DNA from: Dictyostelium discoideum
Taxonomy: Eukaryota
Assembly (NCBI GenBank): GCA_000004695.1
Contig: CM000150.2
Location: 3,968,001-4,032,000 of the forward strand
DNA length: 64,000 nucleotides
Direction of reading: 5' to 3'
Below are positions 21,908-53,604 of this stretch, piece by piece (positions within the stretch are counted from its first letter, which is position 1; each line of letters opens with the position of its first letter). A program made the position numbers and the translations under genes. The notes below the pieces were generated by a model that did not search any database, was not told the origin of the DNA, and saw only the letters and a program-made list of their open reading frames with translations.

Positions 21908-22396
21908 TTAGTTTCCACCTTTATCTTCACACCATTCATTTTCTTTTCTGATTTGTTCTTCTTCTTCTGGAGTAAAGTCGTTCTTGATGTTGAAGATTTT
22001 TCTGATTTCTTCTGGGGTTTTACCTCTGATCATATTGGCAACAGTTTTACAGGTAACATCTAATAATGGTTTGATATCCAAATAATTGGCTGCCAAGATT
22101 AATTCGAATAAGGTTGGTTGATCGACTTTACAGAAATCTCTATCATATGGTGGGATATCATCTAATCTCTTTTCATCCTTTTTATCGTCACCTTGTGGTG
22201 ATGGATGTTGATGGTGATGTCTGCAATAGTCAAGAACTTTCTCTAAAATAGTGCTAGTAACATTTGGTAATGGAATTGGACTATCTGATTCACCAATATC
22301 TTCAATCATATTCTTGATTGTAACTGACATACAAGCGATTTCTTTTTCAATTTCAAAGACTTTTTCATCTGAAGATTCTAATTTAACTAAAGACAT
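21908..22396 (-). CDS. Skp1 (SCF ubiquitin-ligase subunit; glycoprotein FP21), single exon, 162 aa. This is the Ser39 isoform. Dictyostelium has two near-identical Skp1 genes (fpaA/fpaB); which one this is cannot be decided from sequence.
   Basis: [162 protein letters not shown] matches Dictyostelium Skp1 as I recall it. Confidence 0.95.
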
Positions 22397-37378: not shown

Positions 37379-40300
37379 TCTTTTTTTTTTATAAATCAAC
37401 CAATAATGATAAAATAATTTTCAAAACAATAGGTTAAAAATCATAAACACTAGAAACCATTGTAACTTATGTTGTTTTTGAATCAAAAACCATTAGAATA
37501 CTCATAAATACCATAAACAAATATATTAACATTAATATTATTAAAAATTTCTCATAATAAAAGAAATAATTATTTTTAAAAAACAAAGAATTTATTATTG
37601 TTTTGTAATTGTAGAAAATTTTACTATTTATTATAGAGTGGCTAGTTTGGAAGTACTGTGCTTGGTAAACAATAGTCTTTTATAATTTGATTTTTAAATA
37701 TTTTCAATTTGTTTGATGTATTCTGTTTTGTTACAAATTGAGAGTGTTTTGATAATGATAGTTTATAGTTTTTAACTTTGTTTATGCAATCCAAGTTTGC
37801 GGTACCATTTACTCTATTTATAGGTAGATATCCAAAAAATCTTTAAAGTTCGATTCCAGGTTTAAAGATTTTTTGTTTTTTTTTTGATATAAATAAACTA
37901 TTGTAGTATACAATTAGTATGTTATTTTTTATTTATTTATTTTAGGTTTTTTAGTTTTTGTGAATTTAAAATAGTATGTTATTTTAGATTAGGTAATTAA
38001 TAATTAATTGGTGGTGTAATTGTTGGAATTGGTTCATTTGTGTTTATGCTCCATTCTTTTTTAAATTTTTTGATGGTTTCGGACCATTGGGTTTCTTTTT
38101 GAGTTTTTGTGAGGTTGTTTTTAATTGAGTATTGGTTAAAGTTTGATAAAGTTCTTGAATATTCCAATCTTATTAGCTTGTGCCATTTTGATTTTAATAT
38201 ATCATAATCTAGTGTTGTGTTGTTTATTTGGTTGTTCCAATTATCAATTGATTGAGTTATATTGATGTCAAATAATGATTTGCATAACCATATCCATATT
38301 TGGTGAATAACTAATGAGATTATGTTCCAATATGCATGTGTTCTGACTAGATCAAGATTTGTGTTTATATAATTCCAGTTGAACCTGTATTTTTTATATT
38401 GTGCGTTTTCTGCAAAATGAAAATTAATATTGATAGTTGGATCTGGTTTAAATGCTTTGTTGTTTGTTTGTGGTTTATAAATGAGTGTGTATAATTTTGT
38501 TGTTTGGTTTTTTGTTAGTGACCAGTTTTTGTTTCCATTGCAATTTTTATAAATAAAATATTTTAATTTGTCGTGGTTTATGAAGTTGAATGTGTGCTGA
38601 CAATTGAAAAACAAATGACCATAGGGATCATTATTCATTTCATTGTTGCAAATGGGGCAAACTTTGTTGTGTAGATGATTAATCGGAAGACATCTAGCAT
38701 GGAATCTTTGCATTGTATCACGGCCTTTTGGATCTTTTAATTTTTGAATTTTGACAAATAGTTGGTCGTATGTGTATTTCCATAATAGTTGTATTGATTG
38801 TTGGTGCGAAGTAAGAAGTAGATCTGAATATTTCTTGCCAATATAGTCTTTTGATTTACATTGGTGATTGTTTAGTATTGTCGAGTAGATTTCTTTGAGT
38901 GTTGGTGGTAATGGAATATTATTTGTGTTTAATGTTTGAGAGGTTTGATTTTTTATTAATATTGGTTGTAGGATTTGAACTTTATCTTTTAGATATCCAA
39001 TTTGAGTTGCATAGTTTTCCCATTCTTTTTTGATTTTTATAAGGTATGGAGAAGAGATTGATTTGTTGATGATTTGATCCATCCAACTTATCATGTATAT
39101 TGAATTTTTTGCAGATTTATGCATTTGTAAAAATCTGTTGTATATCCAAATCTTTTGAGCAACTTGTCGTAATTGTATATTCCACATACCCCAACCACCT
39201 TCTTTTAATGGTTTTAATGATCTATCATAACACATCGAAGGTATTTTTGCACGTGAATGGATGGTTGATGTGTTGTTTTCAATGGAATTGGTATTGAGAG
39301 TTGGTGATTCAGAATTTGCGGGAGAATTCATAAACCATGAGATTAATTTATTAATTTGAATTTCTTCATCTTTTGTAAATTCTTCAAGGTATGATAAATA
39401 TGTTATTGGTGATAGTGAGTAGGTGTTTATGATGGTTGTTTTTGTTTTTAAAATGTTGTGCCACTAGTTTTCCATAGTACTAATGATTTATTCAACGTTT
39501 TCATTGTTTCTGGTAATTTCCTATGTAAACCTTTATGATTAAAGAAATAGCCAAGGACTCTTTCAGATTGATCTTTTTTGGTTATTGGTATTCTTTTTGA
39601 TTGTGAAATATTGTTTATTATGTGTTTATCAGTGATTTTGTGGGGTTGATTTCTATTATTGCACTTTTGTCAAAATTTAATGATGATGATGTTGAAGCGC
39701 AGAAATTATCGAAATGTTTGATTGATTGTTGTTGTTGTTCGTAGTTGATGTTGTATGTTGTAGAGTCGTCTGCAAATTGGGTAAATTTGATTTTAATTTG
39801 TGGATTGGGTGAAATTGGTAATCCAATTATTGAATTGTCTGCATTGTTCTTGCTTATATTTCAATTACAATTACAAATAAAGTGGCTGAGATTGGGTCAC
39901 CTTGTTTTACACCTCTTTTAATATCGAATTTTCTGGTCGTTTTACCATTAATTGAAATTTTTGCTTGTGAGTCAGATAATAGCTTGTGGATTAAATTTAT
40001 TAATTTTATTGGTATACCAATATGAATTAATGTTCTTTTAATACTATCGTGAGAGATAGAATCAAATGCTTTAAAGAAGTCAATAGTGTGATGATACCAG
40101 GGAGGTTTTTAGATTTGAGGTAGTTGATTAATTCATTGATGTTGATGTTGTCTATGATGAATCTGTGGGGTACGAAACCAGTTTGGTTGTTATTTATGAT
40201 GAAAGGAAGTATTCTTAGAAGACGTGCATTGATTACTTTTGAGAGGATCTTGTAATCAGTGTTTAGAAGTGTAATGGGACGACGATTTGATATGAGTAAG

Positions 40301-41345
40301 GGGTTGCCTTTCTTGTATATTGTGTGTATAAGACCTTCGGTGAATTCTGTTGTGATGTGGTGAGGATTTTCTAGTATATCGTTGAATAATGCAGTGAGAA
40401 TTGGTTTAACTTGGTTTAAATGATTAATGTAGAAAGCATTTGCAACGCCATCTGGACCGGGTGATTTGTTGGGGTTACAGGTTTTAATTGCAGCTTCAAC
40501 TTCATCTTGTATAAATGGTGAGTCTAAACCATTACAATATTCATTTTTTATGATGGGCCATGTGTTTAGCATGAGCTGGTGAGTAATTGGACAACATATT
40601 TGTAAGCTATATAGATTTGTGTAGAATTCAACAAATGCATTTTCAATTTGGTCGGATGTAATGATGTTACCATATTGGATTGATTCAATTTTTGCATCTT
40701 TTGATCTTTTGTTTAGTATTGCTGATAGATACTTGATAGGTATTTCTCCATTTATATGTTTTTTTAATATGTTTGTGTGGTTTTGATGTAATTTGTTTTT
40801 GTTACATATAATATTGTATTCGGCGATGCATTGTTCTTCAAGATGTTTGAATTTTGCTGCTTTTTCTAATAGTATTTGTTTTGCACGTTGAGTTTGTTTG
40901 TCTTTGTTATATTGATAGTTTTTTAGAGTTTTAATAATTTTTGATTTTACTTTTGACCAGTTTGTAAATTGATTGATTGATGTGTTATTGTGATTAGTTA
41001 TTAAATGATTGATAATATTGATTGCTTCATGGTCATTTGCAGTACCAGGTGATAATATCCATCTTTTCTTATGTTTATTTATTTGAAAAGGTGAAGAAAT
41101 TGTTGTTGATATTGGATTATGATCTGATAATGAAGATGGAATTTGGTGGACTTGTGTATATATATTTTCAGGGTCTATTCTATTGTATTGAGTATATATT
41201 CTATCTAATCTGTTGCCATGTGTATGAGTTGGAGTGTTTTTAAATTCACCTTGATCAATTAAATGGTGTTGGTATGTGTAGGATTGGATAATATCATCTA
41301 ATAGTGAATTGTCGTTGTGGATACAGTTGAAATCTCCTGCGATAA
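37379..41345 (-). mobile_element. 5'-truncated, frameshifted non-LTR (LINE-type) retrotransposon of the tRNA-gene-targeted TRE family. Most likely TRE3-type, since it lies downstream of a tRNA gene. ORF2 keeps the C-terminal part of the APE endonuclease, the reverse transcriptase and a C-terminal CCHC-like zinc knuckle. Ends are approximate.
   Basis: Minus-strand translation gives APE motifs ...ISAGDFNCIH...SDHNPI. RT motifs: KSPGPDGVANAFY (RT N-terminus), FVPHRFI, DFFKAFDSISHD (only after a frameshift), QFADDSTTY (YxDD box). Zinc knuckle CPICNNEMNNDPYGHLFFNCQH. Several frameshifts and stops between 39330 and 40030. The 3' end was put at the T-run near 37379-37392. The 5' end lies ~70 bp from the tRNA-Tyr 3' end. 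Confidence 0.8.
37997..40572 (-). pseudogene. Disrupted ORF2 (endonuclease, reverse transcriptase, Zn-knuckle) of the TRE-like retrotransposon.
   Basis: ORF-track fragments 37997..39331 and 40027..40572 (minus) are pieces of one pol-like ORF. They are separated by frameshifts and stops, and the FADD box falls in the gap. Confidence 0.75.
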
Positions 41346-41414
41346 TAGATACATGTTGGGATTGGTTTTGTTTCTGGAATCGAACATGCGTCTGTTGACA
41401 TCACGAAAGAAAAG

Positions 41415-41497
41415 TCCGGCTTGCCAGATTCGAACTAGCAACCGATTGATCACTTTCTATACTACAGTCAATCGCGCTACCATTGCGCCAAAGCCGG
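41415..41497 (-). tRNA. tRNA-Tyr (anticodon GUA) with an ~11 nt intron 3' of the anticodon.
   Basis: Minus-strand sequence CCGGCTT-TG-GCGC-AATGGTA-GCGC-G-ATTGA-CTGTAG[TATAGAAAGTG]A-TCAAT-CGGTT-GCTAG-TTCGAAT-CTGGC-AAGCCGG-A. It has a 7-bp acceptor stem, a 4-bp D stem, and a 5-bp anticodon stem formed across the intron. The T-loop is TTCGAAT and the discriminator is A. It is followed by a T-run terminator (TTTTCTTTCG). Confidence 0.85.
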
Positions 41498-41789: not shown

Positions 41790-42233
41790 TTAAACTTTAC
41801 TTAAAGTAAGTTTATATTGGTAATTGTATGTACTACCCATGATAGCAAAACCACCACTATAAGATTTTACAATTTTGGAACTAGTTGGAATTTGATCTTT
41901 ACTGGTGCAATCTTCGCTATAGAAAACACCACTATAACCTTTAGTTATTTTATATTCAACATGGAGATTTTCACCAGAATTGTAAACACTAACTTTATTT
42001 GGATCACTGAAAAATGTTGATCCAATACCCTTTGAAAATGTATGATTATATGAACTAAAAACAATATTATTTTGTAATAATTGAGCCAACAAGAATATAC
42101 TTTGTGAACCATTATCCAAAGTTTGAGGAATTTCTGGTAATTTACATTTACTACCAAACATTTGAGCATTTGATACTAAACATAATGAAACTAAGAATAA
42201 TAAAAAAAAGGTAAAACTATTAGAAATTTTCAT
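41790..42233 (-). CDS. Small secreted protein, tandem-family copy 1 (147 aa). Signal peptide plus a ~125-aa domain with two conserved Cys.
   Basis: MKISNSFTFFLLFLVSLCLVSNAQ|MFGSKCKLPEIPQTLDNGSQS...EDCTSKDQIPTSS...; 70-80% identical to copy 2. Confidence 0.7.
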   Translation of the reverse strand: MKISNSFTFFLLFLVSLCLVSNAQMFGSKCKLPEIPQTLDNGSQSIFLLAQLLQNNIVFSSYNHTFSKGIGSTFFSDPNKVSVYNSGENLHVEYKITKGYSGVFYSEDCTSKDQIPTSSKIVKSYSGGFAIMGSTYNYQYKLTLSKV

Positions 42234-43449: not shown

Positions 43450-43893
43450 TTAAACTTTAGTTAAGATAAATTTATATTGGTAATAATATGTACTACCCAT
43501 GGTAACAGAGCCACCACTATAAATTACTACACTATAGGAATCAGATGGAATTTGACCTTTACTTGTGCAATCTTCGTTATAATAAACTCCACTATAACCG
43601 CTAACTATTTTATATTCAATATGGAAATTTTCACCAGAATTGTAAACACTAACTTTATTTGAATCACTGAAAAATGTTGATCCAGTACCTTTTGGAAATG
43701 TATGATTATATGAACTAATAACAACATTATTTTGCATTAATTGAGCCAACATGAATACACTGTGTGAACCATTATCCAAAGTTTGAGGGATTTCTGGTAA
43801 ATTACATTTTTTACCAGACATTTGAGCATTTGATACTGCACATAACGAAACAAAGAATAGTAAAAAAAAGGTAAAACTATTAGGAATTTTCAT
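43450..43893 (-). CDS. Small secreted protein, tandem-family copy 2 (147 aa).
   Basis: MKIPNSFTFFLLFFVSLCAVSNAQ|MSGKKCNLPEIPQTLDNGSHS...; intact ORF. Confidence 0.7.
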   Translation of the reverse strand: MKIPNSFTFFLLFFVSLCAVSNAQMSGKKCNLPEIPQTLDNGSHSVFMLAQLMQNNVVISSYNHTFPKGTGSTFFSDSNKVSVYNSGENFHIEYKIVSGYSGVYYNEDCTSKGQIPSDSYSVVIYSGGSVTMGSTYYYQYKFILTKV

Positions 43894-45406: not shown

Positions 45407-45838
45407 TTAAACTTTACTTAAATTAAGTTTATATTTGTATGAGTGTGTACTACCCATGATAACAAAACCACCATCATAATATCTTAGAATATCGGAACTA
45501 GTTGGAATTTGATCTTTACTTGTGCAATCTTCGTTATAAAAAACACCACTATAACCCTTAACTTTTTTATATTCAACATGGAAATTTTCACCAGAATTGT
45601 AAACACTAACTTTATTTGAATCACTGAAAAATGATGATCCAGTACCTTTTGGAAATGTATGATTATATGAACTAATAACAACATTATTTTGCATTAATTG
45701 AGCTAACAAGAATACACTTTGTGAACCATTATCCAAAGTTTGAGGAATTAATGGTAAATTACATTTTTTACCAGACTTTTGAGCATTTGATACTACACAT
45801 AATGAAACAAAGAATATTAAAAAAAAAGGTAAAACTTA
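45407..45838 (-). pseudogene. Small secreted protein, tandem-family copy 3. The N-terminal (signal peptide) region is frameshifted relative to the ATG at 45836-45838.
   Basis: The downstream frame encodes ...SNAQKSGKKCNLPLIPQTLDNGSQSVF... colinear with copies 1-2. Compared with copy 2 there is a 2-bp loss (cctaaTAgtttt to tctaagtttt) and a T9 run where copy 2 has T8. This puts ATGAAAATTTCTAAG out of frame, with a stop after 11 codons. It could instead be a homopolymer sequencing error. Confidence 0.5.
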
Positions 45839-50579: not shown

Positions 50580-53077
50580 TTATACATCTAAATTCCAAAT
50601 TGAATTTGCTAATTCATCAATTGTTTGATAATTTCTAAGTAATGGATTATGTCTTGCAGCAGTTGTAAAAGCATCACAATGATGAATTAAAGTATATTGC
50701 ATAGCTCTTTTAATGAAATTTTGAGGATTTTCATTATAATAATCTAACCAACTCTTTTCATTTTCTTTGTTTGAATTTGGTAAAAGATATTTTGATAAGA
50801 AAGATTTTAATCTAACTTTATCCAATGCGAAGACCGAGATATAAAGTGAAACCAATTCATACCAACGATCACCAATTTTTGAGTCACCCCAATCAATTAA
50901 ATATTTTGGATCCCAAATTTTAATAGTTTTCTTTACTTCAACAAGTTTACAATCTTGATCGTCATTGTTTTTGCCTTTTTGATTTAACTGTTTTAATCTT
51001 GACGCTAAAGAATTCTTAATACCTTTTTTAGCAGATTTTGAAGTTTTATTTAATTTTTTAATTTTCTCTAATACTATTATTTCAGAGGTTGATTCAATAC
51101 CTAAAACATTTTCATCAGTTAAATCTGCATGAATAAAACATGGATCCATTGAATAATCTATTAATTCAGTTTTATCAATTGGTAAATAACTAGCCAATTG
51201 TGAACGAAGATGTGGAGGTAAACCATTCCAATTCCAATGATTTGAAATATATTTTGAATCAAGTGATAATAATTGATTTTTCCAAGGTAACCATTTATCT
51301 TTCTTATATTCATTTAATAATGATTTAATATTATCATCAATTAAAATTGATTGTTTTTCATTATTTTCAATATTATTATTATTATTATTATTATCATCAA
51401 TTTCAATTGAATGAATTAATGATACTTTTTCAACTAAGAAATCAACTAAATTGTCATCTAATACTTTAATATCTTCTTCTTCATCATCTTCGTCATTCTC
51501 ATCATCATTTTCATCTTCTTCAGGTGGTGATGGATATGGATAAGGTAATGAATCTGGTACAGGTTGAACATCTTGTAAATTTAAAGTATCTTTTAAATAT
51601 TCTGTTACAATGTACGGCCATTTCCATTCACATTGTAATTTATCACCTAATAAATCTTTAATATTACCATATGATAATAACTTTGGAAATGTTGAATTTA
51701 ATTTTGAATTCTCTTTAATCTTTGAATATAAGAATAACTCTGTTGACCATGACTTTTCACCACCCAATTCTGAACAATATAATTTAATAACATATTTTTC
51801 ATCAACAATGAAAACTGGACTTTGACCTGAATTTGGCATTTCTAAATATAATGTTGATTCTTTTGGTGGTAATTTAATTTGTTTTGATTTTACTTTTAAA
51901 TCTGAATCATCATCCTCATCCTCATCATATTTTTTACGATTTTCTTCTTTTTTTTTTAATTCTTCTTCTTCCTTTTCTTCATTTTTATTAATATTTGTTG
52001 TATTTATAAGTTCATCATTATCATTATTATTATTATTATTAATTATAATTGGTTTTTCATTAAATTTTAAATTTGAATTATTTAAAATTGATTTAATAAT
52101 TAAATCCCAATAATCTGTATCATCAAATGAATGAGTGAATTGATCATTTTTAAATTCAAATTGATTGAATTTATTTTGAAAATCAGGACGTGAAGTTAAG
52201 AGATGTTTTTTAAAATCATCATAATCTTTTTTTTGATCATTTGCTAAATCGGAACAAACTTCATCGAAATTTTGAGAATTACAAAAGTTTTGAGTTACTG
52301 CAATCGATTGTTCCATATTTAAAACCATATGCCACCAACCACCTGGTACGAATATAGTTTCACCAGGTTCTTGAATACATTCAATTGGACGATAGTCTGG
52401 TGGTAGGTAAGGGTAAACCTCTAATAGCCAAAGTAGGGATGGAGGTGAACCGTAGATTTTATCAACTACTTCGTCCGACTCTACTGTGTATGGTGTGAAA
52501 TTGGGTGGATACATTAACCAACGCTTTCTGCCAGATATTAGCGAATTCCAGGCACTCGTGCCGGCAGGGTCGATGTGCCACGAAGCACCGCTTCTCTCTG
52601 GACCGATTACAATCCATCGGAAATGGGGTCTGTGCTCTTCGCCATTATATTTAAATAAATCTTCAGGAAAGAATTTAGGTATATTATAATCGTCCAATAG
52701 TGATGGCACTTTCTCGCCAAATGCCTGATCGAATACATACAATGGCTCCTCATCAGTCTGAGTCTTCATATATTGACAATAGTCCCTAAACGTCATTTGA
52801 ATACGCTTATTATCCTGATGTGATATCTTGAATACAACATCACCACATCTCTCTATCAATCTCTCCTCTGACCATTCATTCTTCTCCATCATTGGTGTAC
52901 CTCTCTGTGCATTCTTAAATATAACCGGTATCGATGGTATCTCATACTCCCTTTGGAACTCCTCAACTGTCAACTCATCACTCTCAATATGTTTAACATG
53001 TCCGAAATCAACACCATAGTCTTTAACCTTCATATGTCTTCTTAACCATCTCGTATAAACTTCATGTGAATAGAAAT
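50580..53077 (-). CDS. F-box / JmjC (cupin, 2OG-Fe oxygenase-like) / aminoglycoside-phosphotransferase-like (APH kinase fold) tri-domain protein, exon 2.
   Basis: JmjC core ...WIVIGPERSGASWHIDPAGTSAWNSLISGRKRWLMYPP...GWWHMVLN. C-terminal APH-like block ...DPCFIHADLTDENVL...IDWGDSKIGDRWYELVSLYISVF. Same architecture as Arabidopsis At1g78280. Confidence 0.8.
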
Positions 53078-53150
53078 CTAAAGAAAATTAATTAGATTTA
53101 TTTATTAATTCATTCATTCATTCAATCAATATTTTAATGTTATAACTTAC

Positions 53151-53529
53151 CTGGAAAATGTAATGGAATATATGGTTTTTTAAATTTATTAAAAGAATTT
53201 GGATAAAGATATGATAAAGCACTAATTTTCCAATTTTCAATATATTTTACAAATTCTTTTCTACCTTTAATCTCTCTTAGGAATGCATCTTTCCAAAGTC
53301 TATCATCACCTAATAAAATATAAAATGCTGGACTAACACATTGATATTTCAATAGTTCACTACATGTGAATTCATTGAAAACAACGTTCAATAAAATTTG
53401 ATCCTCTAAAATTGATAATGCACCCAATGATTTAGTTCTAAGATCTGTTTCTCCAATTACAACTTTGACACCTTTTGAATTTATAATTTCTTGTTTTTTA
53501 TCTTTTTTATCTGGTCTTTTATAAAATTG

Positions 53530-53580
<51 letters not shown>

Positions 53581-53604
53581 TAATGTGTTTTTAAGAACTA
53601 CCAT
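53151..53604 (-). CDS. F-box/JmjC/APH protein, exon 1 (poly-N, then F-box-like motif).
   Basis: ...LGALSILEDQILLNVVFNEFTCSELLKYQCVSPAFYILLGDDRLWKD (F-box). Donor CCAG|GTAAGT (phase 1) joins TTCTTTAG|AT at 53078-53079. Confidence 0.7.

Follow-up and report, generated by a model that had tools for sequence, protein, structure and literature searches.

The locus at positions 50,580 to 53,604 of the window (the whole 64,000-nucleotide stretch of Dictyostelium discoideum DNA analysed here) raises the question of whether one gene encodes an F-box, a JmjC oxygenase and an aminoglycoside phosphotransferase (APH)-like kinase in a single polypeptide, as had been proposed from the letters of the DNA, and of what such a protein might do. 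Our analysis makes it very probable that the locus is jcdI (Fbxo13; DDB_G0270006), a single gene whose two exons encode a three-module enzyme of 983 residues. It is almost certainly not a new gene, jcdI having already been named and studied (Boland et al. 2022, PMC9485057).

Gene model and identity

The start codon is an ATG that follows an A-rich leader. The parts of the gene are as follows.

53151..53604, minus strand: exon 1 of jcdI, codons 1–151 and the first base of codon 152
53078..53150, minus strand: AT-rich 73-nt intron in phase 1, GTAAGT...TTTAG
50580..53077, minus strand: exon 2 of jcdI, from the remaining bases of codon 152 to codon 983, and the stop
50580..50582, minus strand: TAA stop codon of jcdI

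From the listing of open reading frames alone, in which two frames are separated by stop codons, the exons could be taken for two separate genes, one encoding an F-box protein and the other a JmjC-kinase protein. This model was rejected and its probability is negligible: the intron is a canonical, in-frame GT–AG intron, and the alignments of 49 orthologues, a transcript-derived Physarum sequence included, continue unbroken across the junction, with F153, S155, Y159, R161 and R164 conserved. A protein of ~120 kDa has also been seen when tagged at either end, in a study in which 'exon 1' and 'exon 2' were cloned separately (PMC9485057). The single two-exon gene of the sequence-only reading is thus upheld. 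Homologues were retrieved with the full-length query after deletion of its low-complexity runs; when the last 431 residues were used unedited as query, nothing was returned, for which these runs are the suspected cause.

An exact look-up of the 983-residue sequence in the protein collection gave no entry, and the top database match was a protein of Dictyostelium cf. discoideum with 92% identity. Because the exact match is absent from the collection, the case for identity with JcdI/Fbxo13 (UniProt Q55CL5) draws on residue numbers and motifs, on the structure of the gene and on the Skp1A neighbour. H319 is located in the motif SWHIDP and VFNEF occupies residues 75–79, in agreement with the published H319A and VFxxF-to-ARxxA mutants (PMC9485057). 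The two exons and a poorly conserved N-terminus of ~42 residues are likewise the same, as is the D. discoideum genomic context, with the window also coding for exactly the D. discoideum SKP1a (Skp1A) protein, and there is no known difference from Q55CL5. The poly-N/K-rich residues 1–42 have pLDDT values below 50 in the full-length AF2 model, which agrees with the published description of residues 2–42 as 'poorly conserved' and their removal in that work (PMC9485057).

The F-box and Skp1 binding

53272..53442, minus strand: F-box, residues about 55–111, with the VFxxF motif

When scanned with the F-box family models (Pfam PF00646 or PF12937), the query alone gave an F-box-like match of E=0.18 that scored 12 bits where the cut-off is 24.3. 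Among the orthologues, F-box-like matched 42/49 (best E 1e-10) and F-box 32/49, in the same alignment columns. The AF2 model places helices at residues 55–65, 68–78, 81–87, 92–97 and 101–111, forming a helical bundle with 10-residue mean pLDDT values of 90–94 for residues 61–110 and 73 for residues 51–60. With a profile built from dictyostelid N-termini only, 12 of the 14 matches in the PDB were F-boxes, including the top 12, led by that of Skp2 (E=0.0015) and including that of KDM2A (0.05). To our knowledge, KDM2A and KDM2B (FBXL11/FBXL10) are the other known proteins in which a JmjC oxygenase is paired with a Skp1-binding F-box. Their F-boxes rank among the leading matches of this profile. 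Their order is the opposite, with JmjC first and the F-box and leucine-rich repeats C-terminal; they carry CxxC and PHD domains, lack a kinase domain and are members of another JmjC subfamily.

The N-terminal F-box of JcdI binds Skp1 directly, as seen by reciprocal co-immunoprecipitation and by co-purification from E. coli, and mutation of VFxxF to ARxxA abolished the co-immunoprecipitation (PMC9485057). Since these experiments, including an F-box point mutant, are published, the two-hybrid test of Skp1 binding that might otherwise be called for has in effect been done. JcdI is moreover an abundant Skp1 interactor (PMC9485057), and this, together with a genuine F-box and the precedent of the animal KDM2 proteins, would fit a classical SCF substrate receptor in which the JmjC and kinase domains recognise targets for ubiquitination by Cul1/Rbx1. 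We consider such a role distinctly improbable. The F-box mutant still reduced the O2 threshold (PMC9485057), and control of enzyme abundance through Skp1 has been proposed instead: a study of a Toxoplasma relative suggests, 'as for Dictyostelium JcdI', that Skp1 governs the abundance of an enzyme, rather than the protein being a substrate receptor, with the limit that this relative is classed there as an orthologue of the Dictyostelium paralogue JcdH and not of JcdI (PMC11570480). The earlier suggestion that the enzyme is delivered to an SCF complex consequently goes further than the evidence. We favour a role in which the F-box would mainly couple the solubility and abundance of the enzyme to Skp1, itself regulated by O2 through prolyl hydroxylation and glycosylation.

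The JmjC oxygenase and the O2 phenotype

52251..53000, minus strand: JMJD6-like JmjC/cupin 2OG-Fe(II) dioxygenase domain, residues 178–427
52575..52577, 52569..52571 and 52329..52331, minus strand: proposed Fe ligands H319, D321 and H401, respectively
52524..52526, minus strand: K336, which with Y265, W306 and N329 makes up the proposed 2OG contacts
51864..52250, minus strand: helical extension (residues 428–485), followed by an N/E/K/D-rich low-complexity linker (about 491–556)

The central domain is most similar to human JMJD6, matching it over residues 178–427 with E=1.4e-67 (phmmer), the next family being JMJD5 at about 5e-7; the Pfam scores are 68.7 bits for Cupin_8 (cut-off 27.4) and 60.4 bits for JmjC (cut-off 24). 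The HxD...H triad and 2OG-binding lysine expected of an active oxygenase are borne out: Y265, W306, H319, D321, N329, K336 and H401 are invariant in the 49 orthologues, and the iron triad of JMJD6 lines up with H319, D321 and H401. The aligned identical residues of JMJD6 are H187/D189/H273, W174, N197 and K204, and Y265 aligns with the tyrosine of the JMJD6 PLYIFD motif, presumably Tyr131. Human JMJD6 (a lysyl 5-hydroxylase; PDB 6mev, 3k2o) shares the JmjC core but has neither an F-box nor a kinase domain; it falls in a clade of its own, in which other homology blocks flank the core, and its T184 corresponds to A316 in JcdI. Downstream of the domain, the AF2 model gives moderate to high confidence to helices across residues 422–485 (mean pLDDT 65–93 per block of 10 residues), and pLDDT is below 50 for residues 493–518 and 531–556 of the linker, which is missing in most orthologues.

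Biochemically, JcdI turns 2OG into succinate; its Km for O2 is about 22%, its turnover is limited by physiological O2, and the H319A mutant is inactive (PMC9485057). Overexpression lowers the O2 level required for culmination, an effect that needs His319 and not the F-box, and that disappeared with a construct shortened at its two ends, the N-terminus and the C-terminal region (PMC9485057). As this construct lacks the N-terminus too and was expressed at a lower level, a need for the kinase domain would be only one reading of the loss. Neither the jcdI knockout nor the jcdI/jcdH double knockout has an O2 phenotype (PMC9485057).

The names given to orthologues in databases ('lysine-specific demethylase JMJ21', 'histone arginine demethylase JMJD6', 'transcription factor jumonji') imply that JcdI demethylates lysine or arginine in histones, and removal of methyl groups from arginine has been suggested for JMJD6 itself. 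We regard this as very unlikely. The names are transferred by homology, the literature covered yielded no histone activity assay, and a Pfam scan of the query and the 49 orthologues revealed no domain that would read chromatin or bind DNA. In the JcdI study itself, lysyl hydroxylation is the reaction predicted, and its authors add that the reaction may be a distinct one because the clade split early from JMJD6 (PMC9485057).

The C-terminal kinase domain

50583..51839, minus strand: APH(7'')-Ia-like kinase-fold domain, residues about 565–983
51783..51785, minus strand: beta3 lysine K583
Within the kinase domain, minus strand: alphaC glutamate E598
51108..51131, minus strand: catalytic loop H801-A-D803-LTDE-N808
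50892..50894, minus strand: metal-binding D880 in the motif IDWGD

The C-terminal third of JcdI has a bilobal kinase fold. The Pfam APH model (PF01636) was borderline in the full-length scan (23.1 bits against a cut-off of 23.2), rose to 26.2 bits with the C-terminal domain alone, and matched 18/18 of the aligned C-terminal domains and 47/49 of the full-length orthologues. Of the PDB structures searched, the one most closely related is the hygromycin-B 7''-O-kinase APH(7'')-Ia (PDB 6iy9) of Streptomyces hygroscopicus; a score of 29.1 bits against a cut-off of 640 for the corresponding NCBIfam model (NF000137) marks JcdI as a relative and not a member of that family. Like its stand-alone bacterial relatives (~330 residues), APH(7'')-Ia is free-standing, whereas the JcdI domain is fused and carries large disordered insertions (residues 656–686, 712–726 and 812–870), so that about 60 inserted residues separate the catalytic loop from the metal-binding aspartate. 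Hygromycin is an unlikely substrate of the JcdI kinase.

The Brenner-type HxDxxxxN signature that had been expected in this region is present. Both the 18 fused proteins compared and the 49 of the full-length alignment keep K583, H801, D803, N808 and D880 without exception, with conservation of at least 90% at E598; the domain comparison spans amoebozoan, plant and fungal sequences that are only 22–30% identical in the domain. In 63 stand-alone relatives of 300–400 residues the catalytic residues are conserved save at position 808, where most have His (50/63) in place of the Asn808 of the fused proteins (Asn in 11/63). Judged from its sequence, the C-terminal third of JcdI is a complete APH-fold kinase domain with all canonical catalytic residues conserved. 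The published work describes the region only as homology blocks i1–i5, 'modestly conserved' (PMC9485057), and the word 'kinase' has zero uses either there or in the report on the Toxoplasma relative from the same laboratory (PMC11570480). The i1–i5 region also separates JcdI from other F-box-bearing proteins: Dictyostelium JcdH and Toxoplasma FBXO13 (JMJD6b) are paralogues that combine an F-box with a JMJD6-like domain and bind Skp1 (PMC9485057, PMC11570480), and their clade lacks this region.

Is this domain likely to be active? It might instead be a pseudokinase or scaffold that uses the APH fold for substrate binding, folding or docking. Long low-complexity insertions break up the fold and could affect kinase activity, the region has been treated in the literature as modestly conserved blocks, and neither an activity report for this domain nor a phosphotransferase assay for any F-box/JmjC/APH protein was found in the literature. 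Pseudokinases, however, usually lose at least one of the lysine, the catalytic aspartate and the metal-binding aspartate, and all three are retained here despite the low identity across the domain; we judge the pseudokinase reading to be unlikely, though worth keeping in mind. An active kinase, our preferred reading, would use ATP or GTP as phosphate donor and a hydroxyl group as acceptor. With a pTM of 0.73, the full-length AF2 model only hints at a defined domain arrangement.

Distribution of the fusion

The three-domain reading is supported by the Pfam and phmmer searches and the orthologue counts, and the fusion is old, as had been suspected: it is present in dictyostelids, Physarum, land plants, streptophyte algae and early-diverging fungi. 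The kinase subfamily is a small one: of 1.84 billion proteins, 1342 representatives matched at E<=1e-3. The JmjC domain lies upstream of the kinase in 10/10 of the long representatives sampled. The plant proteins pointed to in the sequence-only reading, the JMJ21/At1g78280 family, proved an apt comparison. At about 940–1000 residues they have the same order of F-box, JmjC/Cupin_8 and APH, with 31–34% full-length identity and invariant catalytic residues; they differ in lacking the dictyostelid poly-N and acidic insertions and in having their own insertions in the kinase N-lobe. Their architecture is recorded in Pfam-based plant surveys (PMC3567966, PMC10178440). A literature search on the plant protein, which returned mostly journal-identifier noise, yielded no functional study, and a search joining JmjC, F-box and 'aminoglycoside phosphotransferase' gave no match.

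Proximity to Skp1A

The presence of Skp1 in the same window had been considered noteworthy. The exact Skp1A gene is indeed there, about 28 kb from jcdI, and the two genes are also close in D. citrinum and D. firmibasis, where their protein accessions are two or three apart. In Cavenderia and Acytostelium they are not close together, and in D. purpureum no Skp1 was found in the sequence flanking jcdI, which spans 10 kb in one direction and in the other stops after about 3 kb at the end of the contig. A rough estimate gives a chance of about 18% that some F-box gene would lie this near one of the two Skp1 genes. With proximity limited to close relatives and a chance of this size, functional clustering of Skp1A with jcdI was judged unlikely; the arrangement is most simply explained as retained local gene order, the genes being adjacent only in close relatives.

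Implications

The gene and its F-box/JmjC/APH architecture are already known. The point of use to specialists is that the i1–i5 region of JcdI corresponds to a full hygromycin-kinase-type domain with, as far as its residues indicate, an intact catalytic set, and that among the long proteins sampled this kinase subfamily occurs only fused to a JMJD6-like oxygenase. That the kinase always lies behind a JmjC domain in these proteins suggests joint action, and the two modules may act on a shared substrate. In one such scheme the JMJD6-like domain would hydroxylate a protein side chain, for example to 5-hydroxylysine, and the APH-like kinase would phosphorylate the new hydroxyl; the outcome may be an O2-dependent phospho-mark or degron, possibly read in a Skp1 context. 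Human JMJD6 is called a lysyl hydroxylase in the literature, and the APH-family enzyme AGPHD1/HYKK phosphorylates free 5-hydroxy-L-lysine. HYKK/AGPHD1, FN3K and LanK-type LxmK belong to the same kinase superfamily as the JcdI domain, and their activities show that the APH fold can phosphorylate hydroxylysine or peptide-bound residues. Loss of the overexpression phenotype in the doubly truncated construct without the C-terminal region (PMC9485057) would also fit. The scheme argues by analogy, however, and the closest structural relative phosphorylates the hydroxyl of an aminoglycoside sugar and not an amino acid; we consider it quite unlikely as it stands. We give only a small chance to the broader proposition that one polypeptide writes an O2-gated 'hydroxy-then-phospho' mark, with its level set through O2-regulated Skp1.

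These observations bear on studies of Dictyostelium O2 sensing and of plant JMJ21, and they advise caution over the 'histone demethylase' label on the plant orthologues. If the coupled scheme were true, it would represent a previously undescribed post-translational modification pathway common to amoebae, plants and early-diverging fungi.

Gene structure and identity

The gene under study consists of two open reading frames joined by a single intron:

53140..53604, minus strand: ORF 1 of the jcdI region (ORF listing)
50580..53033, minus strand: ORF 2 of the jcdI region (ORF listing)
53150..53078, minus strand: jcdI intron of 73 nt with canonical GTAAGT...TTTAG borders, read off the minus strand

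Removal of the intron links the two ORFs in frame, giving a spliced coding sequence of 2952 nt that encodes 983 residues and ends with a TAA stop codon at 50582..50580. The ORFs lie within a GC-richer island (up to 0.43) in otherwise extremely AT-rich DNA. The sequence-only reading had delimited the gene at 50580–53604, which matches its start and stop exactly, and all of the motifs it quoted are found at the expected positions in the translation.

It is close to certain that this gene is jcdI, encoding Dictyostelium JcdI/Fbxo13 (DDB_G0270006, Q55CL5) described by Boland et al. 2022 (PMC9485057). Because an exact look-up of the 983-residue sequence returned no entry in the protein collection, where the top homologue is from Dictyostelium cf. 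discoideum (92% identity), this identity rests on residue numbering, motifs, gene structure and genomic context. JcdI was cloned as two exons, and the published mutants are the inactivating H319A and a VFxxF-to-ARxxA change in the F-box (PMC9485057); in our translation His319 is the histidine of SWHIDP, and VFNEF occupies residues 75–79.

The F-box and JmjC domains

The F-box is weak in the JcdI query alone (Pfam F-box-like E = 0.18, sub-threshold) but clear from its relatives, with F-box-like passing in 42 and F-box in 32 of the 49 aligned orthologues at the same columns. Of the 14 PDB hits of a profile built solely from nine dictyostelid N-termini, the 12 highest-ranked are F-boxes, among them those of Skp2 (E = 0.0015), KDM2A, FBXL2 and FBXW8. 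Residues 55–111 form five helices in the full-length AlphaFold2 model, with block-mean pLDDT of 90–94 for residues 61–110 and 73 for 51–60, and Skp1 binding via this motif has been demonstrated experimentally (PMC9485057).

The central domain is recognized by Pfam as Cupin_8 (1e-18) and JmjC (2.9e-16). Its closest relative in a PDB sequence search is human JMJD6 (E = 1.4e-67 over residues 178–427), followed by the JMJD5 family at ~5e-7. In the alignment the JMJD6 iron triad corresponds to H319, D321 and H401, and residues of its 2-oxoglutarate (2OG) pocket correspond to W306, N329, K336 and Y265; all seven are invariant in the 49-sequence alignment, in keeping with the earlier proposal of a JmjC cupin with an HxD...H iron triad. 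The measured Km for O2 in 2OG turnover is ~22% (PMC9485057).

A C-terminal kinase domain

The C-terminal region of JcdI, published as homology blocks i1–i5, is a catalytically complete kinase domain, as judged by its conserved residues and fold match. The full-length protein scores just at threshold for Pfam APH (23.1 bits, cut-off 23.2), the C-terminal 431 residues alone pass (26.2 bits), and 18 of 18 aligned C-terminal domains match. A profile of this family matches the hygromycin-B 7''-O-kinase structure 6iy9 over a span that runs from the Gly-rich loop to the DFG-like motif (E = 9.2e-24), all remaining matches having E ≥ 0.018. In Foldseek, the domain's AlphaFold2 model (pLDDT 80.3, pTM 0.79) likewise matches 6iy9 (E = 1.7e-8). 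Identity among the aligned kinase domains is just 22–30%, yet the catalytic set is conserved: K583 (β3), the Brenner motif H801-x-D803-xxxx-N808 and the metal-binding D880 are invariant, and E598 (αC) is kept in at least 90% of sequences. The APH assignment, beforehand the least certain element of the three-domain proposal, is the one now best supported by our own analyses, its HxDxxxxN motif included. The domain is related to the APH(7'')-Ia resistance enzymes but falls outside their family, scoring 29 bits with the NCBIfam model, whose cut-off is 640.

Between the catalytic loop and the metal-binding aspartate lies a Lys-rich, low-complexity insertion of ~60 residues (812–870; about 50922..51098), modelled as a long β-hairpin with a disordered tip. 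A variable insertion is present at this site in orthologues as well, compared with a short turn in APH(7'')-Ia.

The order F-box/JmjC/APH is found in orthologues from all dictyostelids sampled, Physarum, land plants, Klebsormidium and Closterium, as well as in the fungi Calcarisporiella and Funneliformis. Land-plant orthologues are named JMJ21 or F-box protein At1g78280, and the shared domain order that the sequence-only reading gave for At1g78280-type proteins holds among the database homologues. Database names for the family are inconsistent and mostly homology-transferred ('lysine-specific demethylase JMJ21', 'histone arginine demethylase JMJD6', 'transcription factor jumonji', 'phosphatidylserine-specific receptor', 'transferases, transferring glycosyl groups'), and none of these reflects the kinase domain.

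An exhaustive search of 1.84 billion protein representatives with the kinase-domain profile returned 1342 proteins at E ≤ 1e-3, 158 of them at E ≤ 1e-30. The top matches are of two kinds: long proteins that end in this domain, with JmjC/Cupin_8 upstream in all ten scanned, and stand-alone proteins of ~330 residues that retain the Lys, Glu, His-x-Asp and Asp. Most of the latter (P0166, P0168, P0173 and others) read HxDxxxxH, a histidine replacing Asn808, in contrast to the invariant HxDxxxxN of the aligned fused eukaryotic proteins, a consistent group difference. Among the stand-alone relatives looked up, three derive from JGI/IMG metagenome assemblies, where they bear the annotation 'hygromycin-B 7''-O-kinase'; one cluster contains a Bellilinea (bacterial) metagenome-assembled genome and is the only one demonstrably bacterial.

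Proximity to Skp1A

The sequence-only reading also remarked that the window contains Skp1. The gene is indeed there, as an exact match that shares its strand with jcdI and lies ~28 kb away, but the significance of its position is doubtful. The features concerned are:

21908..22396, minus strand: Skp1A gene (fpaA), 162 aa, identical to D. discoideum AX4 SKP1a (EAL71965.1)
37997..40572 and 41414..41497, minus strand: retroelement-like stretch with ORFs of 444 and 181 aa, and a tRNA-like gene (ORFs; ARAGORN)
41790..42233, 43450..43893 and 45407..45736, minus strand: three tandem small paralogous ORFs

Between the two genes lie ORFs of retroelement-like character and the small ORFs of a tandem family. 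The 181-aa ORF, as read from its sequence, resembles a non-LTR retroelement reverse transcriptase, and ARAGORN places a tRNA-like gene, whose anticodon is oddly four bases long, ~850 bp from the retroelement-like ORFs. Dictyostelium is known for retroelements that target tRNA genes, and this arrangement is similar. Of the tandem ORFs, which are ~1.7–2 kb apart, two encode 147 aa and have a hydrophobic N-terminus reminiscent of a signal peptide, and the third, at 109 aa, is a partial copy; together they appear to be a small secreted-protein family.

Protein accession numbers put jcdI and Skp1a two or three entries apart in D. citrinum and D. firmibasis. However, the numbering may not follow gene position exactly, since in D. 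firmibasis the 10-kb flanks of jcdI do not show Skp1 within the first three genes to each side. In D. purpureum no Skp1 was found near jcdI in the sequence covered, 10 kb on one side and, on the other, the ~3 kb before the contig ends, and in Cavenderia and Acytostelium the two genes are far apart by accession number. For a ~34-Mb genome with ~54 predicted F-box genes and two Skp1 genes, some F-box gene would by a rough estimate lie this close to Skp1 by chance in ~18% of genomes. The proximity looks like retained local gene order, not a functional cluster.

Implications for JcdI function

JcdI is an O2-limited dioxygenase that binds Skp1 through its F-box and depends on Skp1 for solubility in E. 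coli; its overexpression lowers the O2 required for culmination, an effect that needs H319 and not the F-box (PMC9485057). A construct truncated at both ends, and so lacking the C-terminal region, had no effect but was expressed at a lower level, and knockouts are without phenotype (PMC9485057). The same laboratory's study of Toxoplasma FBXO13, classed as an orthologue of the JcdI paralogue JcdH and not of JcdI, proposes that Skp1 tunes enzyme abundance, rather than the protein being a substrate receptor, 'as for Dictyostelium JcdI' (PMC11570480).

Since its catalytic residues are conserved and the fusion is strict, we infer that the kinase domain is probably active and would share a substrate with the oxygenase, the two working together. 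A more specific version, in which the kinase would phosphorylate the hydroxyl made by the oxygenase, seems to us quite improbable; it draws only on analogy, with the APH-family enzyme AGPHD1/HYKK, which phosphorylates 5-hydroxylysine, with JMJD6 as a lysyl hydroxylase, and with APH-fold peptide kinases, which occur among the structural neighbours of the domain. As for the kinase domain itself, the F-box/JmjC/APH architecture is recorded for plant JMJD6-class proteins (PMC3567966, PMC10178440), and the word 'kinase' has zero occurrences in the functional papers PMC9485057 and PMC11570480. The jcdI gene, its Skp1 interaction and its dioxygenase activity are already known, and to these the kinase domain is a modest, testable addition.
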